From Kondoa subrosea (taxonomy: Eukaryota): a DNA stretch of 64,000 bases. The notes under the pieces were generated by a model. It worked only from the letters and a program-made list of their open reading frames with translations, was not told where the DNA came from and did not search any database. Below are positions 5,636 through 26,000 of this stretch, piece after piece. Each line of letters starts with the position of its first letter. Position 1 is the first letter of the stretch. The stretch is from NCBI GenBank assembly GCA_039545335.1, contig BCIN01000005.1, forward strand, positions 62,001-126,000, read 5' to 3'. The position numbers and the translations under genes are program-made.

Positions 5636-6346
5636 GGAACAAAACTCATTTGGTCTGAGCGTTTCGATTAGCGCGCTAGGCATTCCTGCGAGATAAAGCG
5701 TATTGTGCTAGCGGAGAGAAAATGCAAGAATGTCTTTGTATGCGCAGTCATGTCAAATAGATGTAGACTGGCCGCGTACGTGCGACCGTCGACAGAGGAA
5801 GATCTGTCCATGAACAGAACTAGACAGCGAGATTCGAGAACCACAAGCATACATCGAGAGCTCAAGGCCGACGCCATGTACAGTTCATGTGCAGGCAGTA
5901 CACTTGCAGAGAGAGTACTAAATCATCTGCCCGTGATGACGGAAGCTCGCAGTCTAGAAATCTGGGATGAGTCGGAAGAATCGTAGGCACTTGCATAAGG
6001 CATGAAAAGCAAAGCGCACGCATGCTGGCATTGAAGATGGACATGCAGGAGCAGCGTCATAGCCCTTCGACCATCGGAATAGTTATGACATGGCTGCTTA
6101 CTCCAACTACTCTGAGTTACGGTAGATTGTAACGAGCAAACAGATGAAACCCGAGTGCCACGAGCCATTAAAGGCGTTCGCAAACACAGAGAAGAGGAGT
6201 CTTATATAGTACATTCACACTTATGAGATAACCAAAAAAGAGCATTTCCCCAATCAAGTACGAGCTGAGGAGAATCTCCGTCATGTCCTTTTTGTACTGA
6301 GCGATCCCGATACAACAATGCAAAAGCTCTTGAACACGATCCACAA

Positions 6347-8631
6347 TTAAGCGTTCACTGTGATTCGGGACTTCAAACAGAGTTCAACAAAACACCGATG
6401 AAGTCAACTCACTGTAAGTGCTTGAGTCGATCTTCTCTGGCAGATCAGGAATAGCGACTTCGAAACGAGATTGTATCTCCTTGAGGACAACTTCATCTGC
6501 GTCTGAGGTGACGAAGGTGATAGCGAGACCCTTGGTACCGAATCGACCAGCACGACCTACTCTGTGAAGGTAGGAAGGCGCATCGCTGGAGCAATCGTAG
6601 CTTCGCAAATAATTTTTAGACTTGTTCCTCGAATGAAGGCACTAAGTATAGCTCACTTGATGACAATGTTGACACGTTCCTGTGGGTAATACTGAGCATC
6701 CATCTGAATTGGAAAGGTCCTGAAATTACTCACGACATCGATACCACGACCGAAGATATCAGTAGCAACCAAGATGCGCTTTTCGAAATCCTTGAACTGC
6801 TTATAGCGCTTGATACGCTCTTCTTGACCAAGACCAGAGTGGATAGAGATACTCGGGAAGGAGCACTCGGTCAATAGCTTGTCCAAGGCGATTGCTCGCT
6901 GAACTGAGCGAACAAAGATGACAACCTGCAAACACGAAGATAGACTCAGCATTCACGATGACCAGATCATCCAGTATAATAACCTGATTGAATTCTAACT
7001 CGTCAAGCAAGTCATTCAGCTTGCGATTCTTGGCGGTTTCTTCTAACTTGACGTAATGCTGCTGAAGACCGTGCAGTGTGAGCTTGGTCTCGTCATCGAC
7101 GTAGATCTCGAGAGGCTATTCGGCCAAACTTGAGTTAGCATTACATATTGCAAACAGAACTATATAGCGAACATTTTGCATGAATTTCTTGCAGGTTGGG
7201 CGAATTTCTTTGCTCAGAGTAGCGCTGAACATCATGACTTGTTTGGTTCTAGGTGTAGCTCTGAAGATTTCTTGAACATCGCGGCGCATGTCTGTAGATT
7301 ACAAGTAAAAATTTAAAGTAAGCGATCTTGTTCTTCAAAAAGCGTTCATTCAACAACCAATGGGCGCATCTATAAAGAGAAGAGGAAAGAAGAGAAGAAG
7401 CACAAATTCAGCTTGAAGTAACCCATTGAAAGGTCGAACTGGCTGTGATAGTCGTGTCGAAGGTGCCGAAGTCGAGCAATATCGTTCATGTACCAGTCGT
7501 CCTCGTTTCTCCTCCCCGTACCTCGCCCATTCTGTCGACAATCGCAACAGAATACGACCAAAAGGATTCAAGCCGTCAATATTTCGCTGATGATTGATTA
7601 GCTGTACTTATGTGTATGAAAATCGTTCTCATGCTGATCTTCAGACCCCACAGCTGCCGGAAAGCTGTAACGAGCCCAAAATCTTCCCAAGCCATTCCAG
7701 ACGGAATCAATCAAAAGGGAAAGTGAAGAGGGAAGGGTAAAGAAGATGGATGCGCCCATTGGTTTGTTTGCGAGAATTCCAAAAGTGGATGATGACTAAC
7801 CAACTGATTCAAGCATTTTGTCGCATTCGTCCAAAACAAAGTTTTTGACAGTCTTAGCTTGTAAAACCTTTTCTCGGATGAGGGCGTTGAGACGACCAGG
7901 TGTAGCAACGATGACGTGAGGGCACTTGTCTTTCGACTTGAGCATATCACGGTCGGAAGCGATGGGCGTTCCACCATAGAAGACTGCGGTGCGAACATCA
8001 GGCATATATTTGCTGAATCGAGCATATTCATTCTTGATCTGGTAAGCCAATTCGCGAGTGTGGCACAGTACGATGACTGCTACTTCGCCAGCGATGGGCT
8101 CAATTTGCTGAAGGGTAGCGCAGACGAAAACGGCGGTTTTACCTGATTGTGCCACGTTTTTAGCATACATTCCTTGAATTTGAGTAAAAGCAAAGACTGA
8201 CCCATTCCTGATTTAGCCTGGCAAAGCACATCCATACCCAAGATAGCTTGAGGAATGCATTCTTGTTGGACTGTACGGACAAGAGAGCACTATATAAGCT
8301 CCAGATCGCTTATAGTGCCTGCAATACGCACCTTCTGAAGGATGTTCGAAACCTAAATCCGAGATAGCTCTCAACAATTCAGGCTTGAGCAAGAAATCTC
8401 TGAAGCCGGTCTAGATAAAGGGAAGAAACGCCGCAAAAATGGTAAGACTTGGTTCTCGTCTTGCTCGTGTGGACCACAGCGTACAGAGTGAATGCCGACG
8501 TAAGAACCTTTCTGGTCTTTGGATTCAGCGACGGCAGCAGTTTTAGCTGTTCCATTGGTTGAAGGGGCTGCGGCTGTTGTCGTGAGGTCGTCTTCCTCGT
8601 AATCAATGAGATCTTCATTTTCAGCGCTCAT
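6347..8631 (-). CDS. SUB2: DECD-box RNA helicase SUB2/UAP56 (DDX39B), multi-exon
   Basis: [81 protein letters not shown]; ends STYMNA* (stop 6347-6349). Confidence 0.98.
7292..7800 (-). promoter_or_regulatory. 509-nt structured intron of SUB2 with 16-bp long-range stem, decoy 3' splice site and candidate poison exon
   Basis: Donor GTTAGT at 7800 and acceptor TACAG at 7292 join [13 protein letters not shown]; arms at 7749-7764 and 7355-7370 are exact reverse complements. Confidence 0.8.
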
Positions 8632-8771
8632 ATTGTGTTATAGGGGTAGTAGGCGAGTATAAGAAGGGCACAACAGAGGTCGAAGGCTTCGTTGGAGGAA
8701 GACTTCGAAGAAGAGAGAGAGAGACAAGAGTCCGGCTCGGACCGCTTCATGCTCACTCAGCTCTACAAATC

Positions 8772-10465
8772 TCAGCGAAGCACAGATGCATGTACAGCTA
8801 CTCCATCGTTCCCTCCGACTTCATTAGAGTATAGCCGTGTCCCAAACGAAGAAACGCAGAATCTCCCTTTGTAATCGACATCTGAAAAAGAACGTGAGCT
8901 ATTCCGTTGCAGAAGAGAGGTAGAACACACGGAGTGATGATATGGGACCAGAGTGAGCAACAGTTGCGATCCGATAAGGCAAATTCTTCGATTCTTCAGC
9001 TTCCAAATCCCAAACTCTGATTACATCGCTTGACCCGCAAGCTAGATGTCTTTTATCTGGCATCATCGCTAAGGCTGTTACTGGACCAGACGCAGAAGGT
9101 AACCGTAAGGTTCGAGATTTCAGCGTTCTCAGGTCATAGACATCTACTGAAGCGTTTCTTCGACCGATAAGCACTTGCTGTCCATCGGTCGACCATATCG
9201 CCTGTACCGATTCAGTAATATCCAAGTCTCGCGTATACAAACGTACACTCAGAGCCCATGGCGGCGTTTTCTCGTCCCTTGTCAGCTCGCATGCTTCTTT
9301 CCCAGCAGATCTTCTATCCCACAACAAGGCTTGACCATTCACACAAGTACCAAGTAAAACATCGCTTGACATAGACTTGACTTTCTTATCTATCAGTTCC
9401 GTTTCTTTAGTTGCTGGTTTCGGTTTCAAAGCTTCTACTCCTTCTTCGCCTGATGATTTATCACCTTCGTCAAACAAGGGATCGTGATCCTCTCCCATAT
9501 CTTCGTCCATTGCTGATGAGTCACTTGTTGAAGGTCGAAAAGAGAGTAATGTGATTTGATGAGTCGCCCCATCAAATGTCCGGGCGCATTGTCCAGTATT
9601 GAGATCCCATTGCTTCGATATACGTCATCAAATCTGACTGCATCGACCAAAGGATCAAGGTATAAGCTTACAAGTACTTTCTTGTCCCATCCGCCTGAAC
9701 AGAAACTTGTTTCATCCCAATCAAGAGCCAGAGCAGAAACAGGTTGATCGACCTTATGAGCCGTATTTGAGTCTTTTGCAGGTCGGAAAGTATGCCTGAT
9801 ATGTCCTTCGTCCAGTCGGACAGTAAACAGATTGATTGATCCGTTCTAGCATTCGAATGTCAATCATTCGGCGTCTTCTTTTCATGATAGAGACCTACTT
9901 CCGATCCACTCAAACCCCAAAGTTCTTCTGCTTGTAAAGCAAGAGAATGAACAGCGAAATTGCCAGTCTTTTGTAAATGTTCACCAACAGGTCTTGGACC
10001 GAATCTAGCTTTCGTTATCGAATCTTTGGCTGGTATTGTACCAGGTAGATCTTCTGGATCCACATTCTCCCAGTATGAGAAAAGAACGGGATTGGGCGAG
10101 CTTTGTACGTAGGTTGCTGGTTGTGGTAGAAGATTGTTTGCATGATTTGTACCGTTTAAGGAGTCAATGAGTGCATACCGACGAATGTATCCATCTTGTG
10201 AGCCAGTATAGAGATGTCCAGAATCCCGAGACAAGATTGAAGCGTTGACTGAAACTCCATGCGGCAGAGAAAGAACAGGTTCAAAGAGATACGAGGGAGG
10301 AGAAGAAGAAGGAGAAAGAGACGGAAAGTCCGAAAGCTTGCGTCGCTTAGCTACTGCTTCAGGGTATGGAAGGGAATCGAAACTAGTATTGTTTGCTTGA
10401 GCTGCATCAGCGACTGAGGCATCGTCATTGGCTGGAGAAGGGCCAGATGCGGGCGTAGCAGACAT
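8772..10465 (-). CDS. SPT8: WD40 protein, SAGA subunit SPT8-like
   Basis: LYTGSQDGYIRRY, YWEN, VHSLALQAEELWGLSGSE, acidic linker, LLWDRR, TPPWALS, IGRRNASVDVYDLR..LRLPSASGPVT..GSSDVIRVWD. Confidence 0.85.
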
Positions 10466-23090: not shown

Positions 23091-26000
23091 CTAAAGAATG
23101 CTATTTTACAAAAGATAAATGAGATTGTCCAAGACTTAGCGCATTCTGAGTATAGAGGACCTTTTCCGCACTGCAGGTGGTCGAGCTTTAGATATCGTAG
23201 GAGAAATGATGCTCGTGCTAGTATGATAAATCAGCGAAACCCAAGGAAAATGGAAGAAAGAAGCTGACTTTTCTTGACTTTCTCCTCCTCCGGTATAGAG
23301 CTCACTATCTCTACTCCTTTCAAAGTTACGGTCAGGCTGTACTAATCCTTCCAATCTTTTCTGACTGTATGAAATCACATCCCGTCTTCTCTTGCTCGTC
23401 TTCTCTTCTACCACGTTGCTCATAGTAGCTCCATTGAGCAGTTTAGGCGCTAGAGCAGATCTTCGTGCTTTCTTATCACTTGTAGGATCCGAAGCAACCA
23501 AAGAAAGTTTCTTCAGTTCGACACTGCTTGTTCGTTTGTGTTGTTGTATGGTGGATAAGACTAATGGGCGAAGAACTCTAGGAGCAGGACTTTCCTCGAA
23601 AGAAGGAGAGAAGGAAGCTGCGGAATTTCTGCTTGATCCAGCATCGGAAGAACAGGGGCTAAGATCTGGTGTTCCGGCTTCATAGCTTGAGCTCGATTCC
23701 CGAGAGGAGATGGACTTGTATCTGTCTTGACTGTTGAGAATGAAGCGAGCAATTTCGAGACCATTAGCAGGAGGGGTGAAAGCTGCATAAAATTATGAGA
23801 GGGTAATCACCTAATAATAGAAGGTATCTCACATTGCACTTCCGTAGCAGAGTATTCAGTATCGGGAAAGATTTTCTTACTTTGGCTCAATTCATCTTGA
23901 GCTTCGCGACAGAATTTCAGCAAATCAATAGCTTGATCAGAGAAGGGTTCGCTAGCTCTGTTGTCGTCCAATGGGTCAGCAATATGCACTCGATCAGCAA
24001 AGTAGTCCTTCTGCTGTGCTTGAGGGCTCGGCTCTTCCACAATAGTTTGTTGAAAGAGAGGTGCACGGGCAGAAGGTCGGCGTGGATCTTTCGGCGGTAC
24101 TTTAGGTGCTAGTCTAATGATATTGCTCTGGGCTATCTCTGGCCGATAGTTAGCGAAAGAATCGCTTGACAATCGATTGCCATTATCTGAAGATGAAAAT
24201 TCCGAAGCCGAAGGTGAGCTGGCAGGTGGGGTATCGGGCTGCCAGAGCTGGTCAGCACAAATCAATCGGTAAGAATAAAACCTACTGGAACAATGCCCGA
24301 AGTAATGCTCGAAGAGGACAAAAGTTGAGGTCGAGCAATGATGACTTGATCAGTTTGGGTAGTCGGCAAAGGTCGAACATAGCGCGGAGAGGGTTCTGCT
24401 ATCACATCAGTAATTTAGAGTACTGACTCGTGAGGAGCGTACCCGAAGACCTCTCGGAGTCCTGATCACTTTCACCAAAGCTGATTGGACCCAAATGAGC
24501 TCCAGGTCTTGGTAAACGATTTCCAGTGAGCATAGCAACTTTCTTGCCTACCGGTCTAGGACAAGGCGAGGAGCCAACGGAAGAAATGGTCAAGAAAGAC
24601 TGTCTGTTGTTTCGAAGTGGATACAGTGGACGATGATCTTCGGCTGAACTACCAGAGTTCGAGTCGACTGAAAGTTGCGATTGATGTCTTACTCCGATTG
24701 TTGGATGAGGAGCTGGTTCAAGTTGACCCATTTCGGATTGTCTGAGATGTGAATAGCGGCGAAGACTGTTTCGAGTGCGTTTGCCGGGACAAGGTGAATG
24801 ACCAAGAGACTTGTTAGTGTCCATGCTGATGATGCTGGAGCGAGCACTTTGTGGCATATGAGGCGGAGCTTCAGAAACTTGAGATGATGCCAAACTAGTT
24901 CTTCGCGAATGATGATACTGACGAGAAGGCATTTCTGGAGAAGGTGATCCGGCCTGAACAACGAATTAGCTGATATTGATTTGGTGTATATGTAACTCAC
25001 CAGCGGATCAAGGGAAACGATAAAGTCAATATCATCCAGCATTCTCGCACCGCAACTTGGTCGACCCATTTCGATATATCGATTGAAAGAGCTTCTAGTA
25101 CTTGTGCGATCCCCAGACTTGGGTTCATCCAGTTCGAAAGAAGTTCTATGAGTTTCGTAGCTTGGTCTTGCCTCGTCCATACTTCTGCGACCATACTCGG
25201 ATACATCAAAGCTACTTCTACCATTGCTGGAATCCAGACTTGGTCGGCCGATAGTCGCCGAACCATCTAGCATATGTTGCAACGCAATAGCAGCGGCTTC
25301 AGTAGCAGTAGAAATATTGCCTTCGAAACTTGAACGGGATTGGAAAGTCAGATCTTCTTCAGGTGAAAGTTTAGCTGAATGAAGCGCTTCTTCCATAGAG
25401 CTACGAGGTGATTCGTACACTACTGCGTTGATCAGATCTTGAAGATCATCGGGAACTTCGTGTTGGGTTGAAGCGTTGCTGTGCTTTCTGGTAGAAGCTA
25501 ATGAACCGAGAGTAGCATCTTCTGCGTCCGGATCATTGAAACCAGTTAGAAGACTTGCTAGCTGACTGTTGGCGAATTGCACATGTTCAATATCAGCTAA
25601 GAGGTACGTAAAGTATAAGCAAGTATATGAGGACAAGCGAAAAGATACGAACTGGATTTGCGAGGCGGAGGCGACTCAGCTTGTATGACGGTCGTGTCGG
25701 GCATAGAGATTGGCGAAGGTAGCGGCTTTGTGAGAGTACCAGACCCTCGCAGCGCTTTGACTAGCTTCAATGATTTCTTCTTGAACATCTTAGGAGGTGT
25801 CTTAGGGGATGGACAAGGTGAAGAGAGCTGAGTTGTGTCTTCGCAAGATGAACTGTAGGACTTCTCTGATGCTGATCTGATGACGGTCGGTCGTGGCTGA
25901 GGAGCAGACCGAAGGGCGTAAGTAGATTGAGCTTTGCGAATTTCTTTATCATGTTTAGCTCTCATACAAGGACGACCGTTGATCACTCACCAAGGACAGG

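Follow-up and report, generated by a model that had tools for sequence, protein, structure and literature searches.

A candidate zipper stem, private to its lineage, in a conserved and probably regulatory long intron of the SUB2 gene of Kondoa subrosea

SUB2/UAP56 is a dosage-sensitive protein that is essential for splicing and messenger RNA (mRNA) export; its TREX partners YRA1 and Chtop are reportedly autoregulated through introns, and intron-based autoregulation is also said to operate on yeast DBP2. Here we report a perfect inverted repeat of 16 base pairs (bp), predicted to form a long-range stem, in the exceptionally long intron 4 of the SUB2/UAP56 gene of Kondoa subrosea, which is encoded within a 64,000-nucleotide (nt) stretch of contig BCIN01000005.1 (assembly GCA_039545335.1, positions 62,001 to 126,000 of the forward strand; hereafter the window, in whose numbering positions are given). 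Among the closest described systems are the zipper stems of Saccharomyces cerevisiae, which the available passages of one paper define as helices of at least 6 bp joining the region after the 5' splice site to the region before the branch point, with linkers of at least 10 nt and at least 20 nt and a total linker length of 42-85 nt (PMC12350175). According to the same passages, zipper stems bring the branch point and the 5' splice site close together, are widespread in long yeast introns and are poorly conserved between species, consensus cryptic 3' sites in yeast are preferentially protected by structure, and disruption of the RPL28 zipper stem lowered intron retention (PMC12350175). In the available part of a second paper, the RPL7B intron is reported to require its zipper stem owing to a non-consensus branch point (PMC12311795). 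Another close system is the plant DEAD motif of DRH1/RH46, for which the accessible sections of a preprint describe a 20-bp stem that has an alternative 3' site at its foot and, once opened, shifts splicing to non-coding forms (bioRxiv 10.64898/2026.01.23.701338).

The intron 4 stem resembles the yeast zipper stems, as represented by RPS17B and RPL7A/B in the available passages (PMC12350175, PMC12311795), in the placement of the helix, in the unusual length of the intron and in the poor conservation of the stem between species. Unlike them, it is hosted by a Pucciniomycotina-like basidiomycete with short and numerous introns, and it consists of a perfect 16-mer with a 378-nt loop that would also bury a strong cryptic 3' site, the helix being a predicted fold. 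With the plant DEAD motif, as far as the accessible sections of the preprint describe it, the locus shares its location in a gene for a DEAD-box helicase, a stem of about 20 bp with an alternative 3' site at its foot, a non-coding product of the alternative site and a proposed negative feedback via helicase activity. The plant element is a local hairpin, found land-plant-wide in genes of the DDX5/Dbp2 type and validated by disruptive and compensatory mutants, whereas the SUB2 stem is long-range, unconserved, located in a DDX39/Sub2-type gene and predicted from sequence. A first-pass annotation of this DNA knew of no description of the architecture; that statement is out of date, since a plant hairpin that masks an alternative 3' site in a DEAD-box gene and serves as a helicase sensor is reported in those sections (bioRxiv 10.64898/2026.01.23.701338). 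The intron autoregulation of yeast YRA1 and DBP2 and of human CHTOP is similar in combining an atypically long intron and non-optimal signals with a dosage-sensitive messenger ribonucleoprotein (mRNP) factor, and in the premature stop that follows from a retained intron; unlike these three genes, SUB2 is represented by no such case in the literature found on SUB2/UAP56.

SUB2/UAP56 is a DDX39-type DEAD-box helicase gene on the minus strand of the window, with its ATG at 8631 and its stop codon ending at 6347. Every exon is matched block by block by three spliced, transcript-like metagenome contigs (L001-L003), which fixes the gene model. These contigs belong to a set of 80 related metagenome loci that carry exon 4 and come from one scan. 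The elements of the gene considered below are as follows.

6347..8631, minus strand: SUB2/UAP56 coding region, 10 exons and 9 introns, with junctions that match the spliced contigs L001-L003
7292..7800, minus strand: intron 4, 509 nt, phase 1, GTTAGT...CAG, at the same position in 69 of the 80 related loci
7795..7800, minus strand: intron 4 donor GTTAGT, with which 28 of 29 long orthologous introns likewise begin
7749..7764, minus strand: 5' arm of the stem, intron nt 37-52 (7749-7768 with the extension)
7355..7370, minus strand: 3' arm of the stem, intron nt 431-446 (7352-7370 with the extension)
7370..7371, minus strand: cryptic ("decoy") AG, the G of which is the first base pair of the predicted stem
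7374..7400, minus strand: pyrimidine run before the cryptic AG, 27 nt, all pyrimidine
7406..7412, minus strand: branch-like GCTGAAT, 38 nt upstream of the cryptic AG, its GCTG predicted to be paired with a probability of 0.87
7350..7352, minus strand: TGA stop codon met via the cryptic AG
7317..7323, minus strand: GCTTACT, putative true branch site, with its A at 7319, 27 nt to the acceptor and 35 nt past the 3' arm

Exon 4 translates to a product beginning KTAVF, with 96% identity to that of L001. Its identity to named SUB2 proteins from Pucciniomycotina and further basidiomycete groups is 75-81% (top named matches: Rhodosporidiobolus 81%, Mixia 81% and Meredithblackwellia 80%, with Puccinia graminis at just 75%), which agrees with the gene's initial assignment to SUB2/UAP56; the proteins P0009 and P0010 reach 82-86%. 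Judged by the protein names, the host probably belongs to Pucciniomycotina. Introns 1-9 measure 74, 61, 59, 509, 57, 58, 54, 56 and 55 nt, so that intron 4 is, as had been observed at first pass, a clear length outlier against the 54-74 nt of the other eight.

An inverted-repeat search returned, in this intron, arms at 7355-7373 and 7746-7764 (19 nt, 95% complementary, spacing 372 nt) with a perfect core of 16 bp between 7764-7749 and 7370-7355. The exact reverse complementarity of the 16-nt arms noted in the first-pass annotation is thereby reproduced, together with the start of the 5' arm 36 nt past the donor; the distance from the end of the 3' arm to the acceptor, given there as about 60 nt, is 63 nt. 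A 16-bp run was reached by none of 300 dinucleotide shuffles of intron 4 (mode 8, maximum 14), and the arm 16-mer occurs in the window at these two arms only, even with 3 mismatches tolerated. For a 12-nt seed and a spacing within 1 kb, five inverted repeats turn up across the window as a whole, which is about the chance number, and the intron 4 stem has the longest perfect run.

When intron 4 was folded computationally, the stem was present in both the minimum-free-energy and the centroid structures. Its 14-bp core has a pair probability of 1.00 for the intron alone and for exon 4, intron and exon 5 together, and the mean over all 16 bp is 0.94. The predicted duplex energy is -29.4 kcal/mol, or -32.9 kcal/mol with a flanking AACAA/TTGTT extension and one bulged A, in which case the helix comprises 19-20 bp. 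Taken in full, the intron shows no exceptional stability (z = -1.36; equally good folds in 9 of 100 shuffles), and in these models its structural signal is the one 16-bp helix, not overall stability. As long as the 3' arm is not yet transcribed, the nascent 5' arm is predicted to have no strong competing partner (mean probability of being paired about 0.5), and folding of the intron 4 region yielded no alternative, mutually exclusive structure of similar strength to the stem. Against the start of exon 5, the 5' arm makes a 7-bp match with an energy of -14.6 kcal/mol, compared with -32.9 kcal/mol for the extended stem. The ATGCGCC that follows the cryptic AG (7369-7363) repeats the start of exon 5 (AG/ACATGCGCC, 7289-7283), and the 5' arm can therefore pair weakly with the true acceptor and exon 5 start; judged from the sequence, this repeat may be a hint of local duplication or a coincidence.

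Retention of intron 4 and use of the cryptic AG would each lead to a stop codon. Because the donor is GTTAGT, retention of the intron brings an in-frame TAG (7798-7796) directly behind the exon, and translation ends after ...ESVG (GGT TAG; open reading frame 7796..8170). Splicing to the cryptic AG at 7371-7370, which is the first AG downstream of GCTGAAT with none intervening, gives ESVDAPIGC followed by the stop, so that the first-pass account of an AG behind a long pyrimidine tract and GCUGAAU, with the product ESV-DAPIGC-stop, was reproduced, and its proposal that a plausible cryptic 3' site is masked by the stem, with the G inside the helix, is borne out by the folding model. GCTGAAT (7412-7406) seems to resemble the GCTNA-type branch-like motifs in other introns of the gene. 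The pyrimidine run at 7374-7400 shows partial predicted pairing with the purine-rich segment 7517-7500, at a pair probability of about 0.3. From the position of GCTTACT we infer that the branch point of intron 4 is A7319; the same motif is found 34 nt ahead of the acceptor in L003, and CTTAC stands 19-33 nt ahead of it in L015, in L027/L029 and in the group of loci designated clade A.

On the established sequence, statistical excess, predicted stability and geometry of the helix, and on the finding that relatives share the intron and lack the stem, we base the following reading, which we consider to have about an even chance of being right: the helix acts as a zipper stem, a type of structural splicing enhancer, peculiar to this lineage, and additionally hides a cryptic 3' site, the intron around it being probably regulated. 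It would loop out 378 nt of intron 4 and leave the donor about 36 nt and the putative branch site GCTTAC about 35 nt away from one common helix base, and the effective distance separating the branch point from the 5' splice site would shrink to about 64-71 nt, near the usual 54-74 nt of the introns of this gene. With A7319 taken as the branch point, the linkers of 36 and 35 nt add up to 71 nt (64 nt with the extension) and lie within the positional limits of zipper stems, and the 16 perfect bp (19-20 with the extension) exceed the minimum of 6 bp. The restriction to one lineage also fits this class, since yeast zipper stems are poorly conserved across species. In burying the G of a credible cryptic 3' site (GCTGAAT, the 27-nt pyrimidine run and UAG), the helix would favour the productive acceptor. 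In this reading the helix would form in vivo and promote productive splicing. Intron 4 itself is conserved among the SUB2 genes of basidiomycetes and is probably a regulatory intron of low splicing efficiency, the retention of which would terminate translation at once (GGT TAG), and it would in this way serve regulation. Should the stem work in this manner, structural splicing enhancers of the zipper class would not be limited to budding yeasts and would operate also in those intron-rich fungi in which the spliceosome is tuned to introns near 60 nt.

The orthologous intron was compared across the 80 related loci, of which 7 are spliced, complementary DNA (cDNA)-like contigs, 4 end before exon 5 and 69 carry an intron at the exact phase-1 position. 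The intron has a long form of 290-891 nt in 29 of these 69 loci (23 distinct sequences, about 8 lineages) and a short form of 36-72 nt in the remaining 40 (33 distinct sequences), whose branch motifs are mainly of the CTAAY/CTGAY type. The donor GTTAGT begins 28 of the 29 long introns and 4 of the 40 short ones. Other introns of the long-intron genes have approximate lengths of 43-122 nt; the ten that were exactly resolved, from five loci, by a crude splice finder that left 14 of 28 junctions unresolved, measure 49-112 nt, and none of them begins with GTTAGT. The long-intron loci are phylogenetically non-independent, with about 9 lineages, so that locus counts overstate the number of independent observations. 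Among k-mers shared across 9 lineages, only GTTAGTC (6 lineages) lies above the shuffle maximum of 5, and GCTTACT (5 lineages) just equals it. Examples of the long form are the following.

L006:3341-4231, long orthologous intron
L007:3226-4034, long orthologous intron
L013:3341-3731, long orthologous intron
L015:3341-3630, long orthologous intron

Conservation of the long intron within clade A exceeds that at third codon positions in the neighbouring exon for all 55 of the 55 pairs (means 0.85 and 0.71), which points to constraint on the intron sequence. The contigs L002 and L003 come from different samples and are 99.6-99.8% identical, and hence represent one species; no intron is left in L002, and the long SUB2 intron is the only one left in L003 (L003:654-1008), which suggests that its excision is slow or regulated in that relative. 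The first-pass idea of a regulatory intron thus holds in a wider sense, as the intron is long in 29 of the 69 loci, has an unusual donor with an in-frame TAG, is under constraint in clade A and is the sole intron retained in L003. The conserved and probably regulatory feature is, from these comparisons, the intron itself and not the stem. No description of a regulatory or long SUB2 intron in fungi was found in literature searches on SUB2/UAP56 and its introns, and a survey of Ustilago helicases makes no connection between Sub2 and introns in the 12 of its 20 matching passages covered.

This side result may matter more than the stem, since one exceptionally long SUB2 intron, with an immediate stop if retained, is conserved across many basidiomycete lineages and opens the homeostasis of a core mRNP helicase to tests in basidiomycete yeasts that are tractable. 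The long intron would also account for the many public SUB2 models that end at about 210-230 residues. Sixteen named public SUB2 gene models on large contigs comprise only 204-246 amino acids, compared with 212 residues from exons 1-4, and probably reflect gene callers breaking at the long intron.

P0012-P0014, P0017, P0020, P0021, P0024, P0026, P0027, P0039, P0047, P0055, P0057, P0086, P0106 and P0107: short SUB2 models

Two further observations concern the splicing signals at this position. GC donors (GCATGT, GCATGA or GCACGT) occur in 10 of the 40 short introns, and the maintenance of this rare donor class at one site indicates a second fungal group with a non-optimal donor here.

L005, L010, L011, L018, L030, L037, L043, L044, L048 and L051: loci with a GC donor, the intron standing right after the exon 4 match

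An AG-exclusion zone downstream of GCTTACT in the introns of 800-900 nt was considered and rejected, as 15-27% of shuffles of the pyrimidine-rich tail are also free of AG and AG-free runs of equal length are found upstream as well; the AG-free stretch is thus not significant, and a distant branch point in these introns is not supported.

The same loci provided the conservation tests of the stem, and several of the results weigh against its role as a zipper stem. The arms are missing from the intron of L003, the nearest available ortholog (exons about 77-87% identical), in which the longest perfect inverted repeat is 8 bp, the chance level, and the block GAAGAACAAGATCGCTTACTTT is the sole part of intron 4 of the window that aligns with it. 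A test for compact helices (nt 11-100 against a 100-nt stretch whose end lies 20 nt ahead of the branch motif, with 100 shuffles) gave the window intron a score of 43 against a shuffle maximum of 28 (0 of 100), and revealed no comparable 5'-to-3' helix in 18 other long orthologous introns: the best of these (L020, L006 and L015) were reached by 1-3 of 100 shuffles and have mostly linkers above 85 nt, and the rest are unremarkable. A duplex test with wider windows produced long gappy duplexes and is less informative; it too singles out the window intron only. The conservation or covariation of the arms that the first-pass annotation had set as a test was therefore not borne out, the helix is left without comparative support, and the 16-bp stem is, among the orthologous introns examined, private to the lineage of the window. 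Since relatives splice introns of 290-891 nt at this position without such a stem, it is not obligatory. A perfect, wobble-free 16-mer also looks young and could be a neutral inverted duplication. CTTAC-like motifs are present in ordinary short introns of the gene as well, which keeps the claim of a weak branch point modest, and in the available passages on yeast RPL28 disruption of the zipper stem lowered intron retention, so that the direction of the effect is not guaranteed.

Other structures in the orthologous introns were recorded alongside. A consensus fold of clade A (RNAalifold, 12 introns) has a covariation term of -0.16, with double changes in 4 of 66 pairs, and a candidate clade A helix, TTGTCTGC/GCAGGCAG, was rejected because it is broken and not compensated in L019/L039. 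The long SUB2 introns of L027 and L029 contain a perfect internal stem of 13-14 bp with one compensatory change from C:G to T:A, located elsewhere than the stem of the window (intron nt 116-131 and 239-253).

L027:865-877 and 988-1000, arms of the internal stem
L029:845-858 and 967-980, arms of the internal stem

Because the helix is perfect and private to its lineage, a serious rival is that it represents a young neutral inverted repeat, produced by a small inverted duplication, a template switch or the ends of a miniature transposon in an already long intron and tolerated as harmless to splicing; we regard this as possible and, on balance, unlikely. Sixteen base pairs that contain neither wobble nor mismatch and are missing from all relatives examined agree with a recent origin, the 99 nt lying beyond the arms would alone make an intron of ordinary size, and the resemblance of the 3' arm start (AG/ATGCGCC) to the true acceptor junction (AG/ACATGCGCC) hints at local duplication. 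Against this rival, there is no target-site duplication, with no direct repeat at any of four boundary choices, the complementarity ends sharply at the arm ends, beyond which the flanking sequences on either side give alignments that do not surpass those of shuffles, neither the arms nor the interior recur in the window or in the 80 related loci, and the interior encodes no open reading frame longer than 73 amino acids on either strand, which also argues against a nested gene. Moreover, the near-symmetric position of the arms, 36 and 35 nt from the donor and the putative branch site, is that expected of a zipper stem. A miniature inverted-repeat transposable element is not supported as the specific source, as it would be represented by its inverted repeats and by neither target-site duplication, flank complementarity nor another copy in the window and the 80 loci.

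In the reading proposed at first pass, the stem is a helicase-sensing switch: once opened by Sub2 or a different helicase, it would lay bare the cryptic AG at 7371-7370, and the resulting ESVDAPIGC-stop mRNA would be degraded, the closed stem being the productive state. Of this interpretation the gene, the intron length, the burial of the site, the stop and the idea of a regulatory intron stand, and the conservation or covariation of the arms does not; the switch as such seems to us improbable. The cryptic site is credible in having GCTGAAT, a 27-nt pyrimidine run and the first downstream AG, its G is the first pair of the predicted helix, and its product carries a premature stop. The intron also looks regulated in relatives, to judge by its length, donor, conservation and retention. 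A near-identical logic has been shown experimentally for the plant DEAD motif in DRH1, according to the accessible sections of the preprint (bioRxiv 10.64898/2026.01.23.701338), but the plant element is conserved across land plants, whereas stem and decoy are conserved in no orthologous intron examined here. In addition, a duplex of 16-20 bp and -29 to -33 kcal/mol that closes a 378-nt loop would need to be opened, and DEAD-box proteins are reported in those sections to unwind efficiently only about 10-15 bp (bioRxiv 10.64898/2026.01.23.701338). No mutually exclusive alternative fold of comparable strength was found by folding of the intron 4 region, and the transcript of the closest relative, L001, has the canonical junction and not the counterpart of a 7801-to-7369 junction. 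A bolder form of the switch would make the long phase-1 intron before the DMRRD exon an ancient Basidiomycota sensor of Sub2 dosage, rebuilt in this lineage as a helicase-openable stem that masks a poison 3' site, and thus an independent DDX39-type counterpart of the plant DEAD motif. Its conserved features may be the GTTAGT donor with the in-frame TAG, the CTTAC-type branch site and selective retention; we consider this version highly improbable.

Least probable of all is that the looped-out 378 nt form a functional structured RNA, either a non-coding RNA housed in the intron or a platform to which proteins bind, the stem being its closing helix, since the high-probability internal helices predicted (for example, 248-256/264-272 at 0.97 and 88-95/203-210 at 0.85) and the strong conservation of internal blocks of the orthologous intron in another clade are set against an ordinary whole-intron folding energy (z = -1.36), an interior without similarity to any orthologous intron, a consensus structure of the conserved clade with essentially no covariation (-0.16; 4 of 66 pairs double-changed), the lack of a C box, and an Rfam search that found, at E values up to 1, no family in positions 6000-9000 of the window, and none at the gathering score in 10 related loci. 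An intron-hosted small nucleolar RNA or other Rfam family was accordingly rejected, with 0 covariance-model matches and no C box.

Finally, a perfect 14-bp inverted repeat with a spacing of 607 nt was observed elsewhere in the window, at 24966-24979 and 25587-25600, on a minus-strand gene. One of its arms overlaps GCTAAT, a branch-like motif in a short intron, and the other stands where the upstream exon begins; chance would give about 0.2 repeats of this kind in the window.

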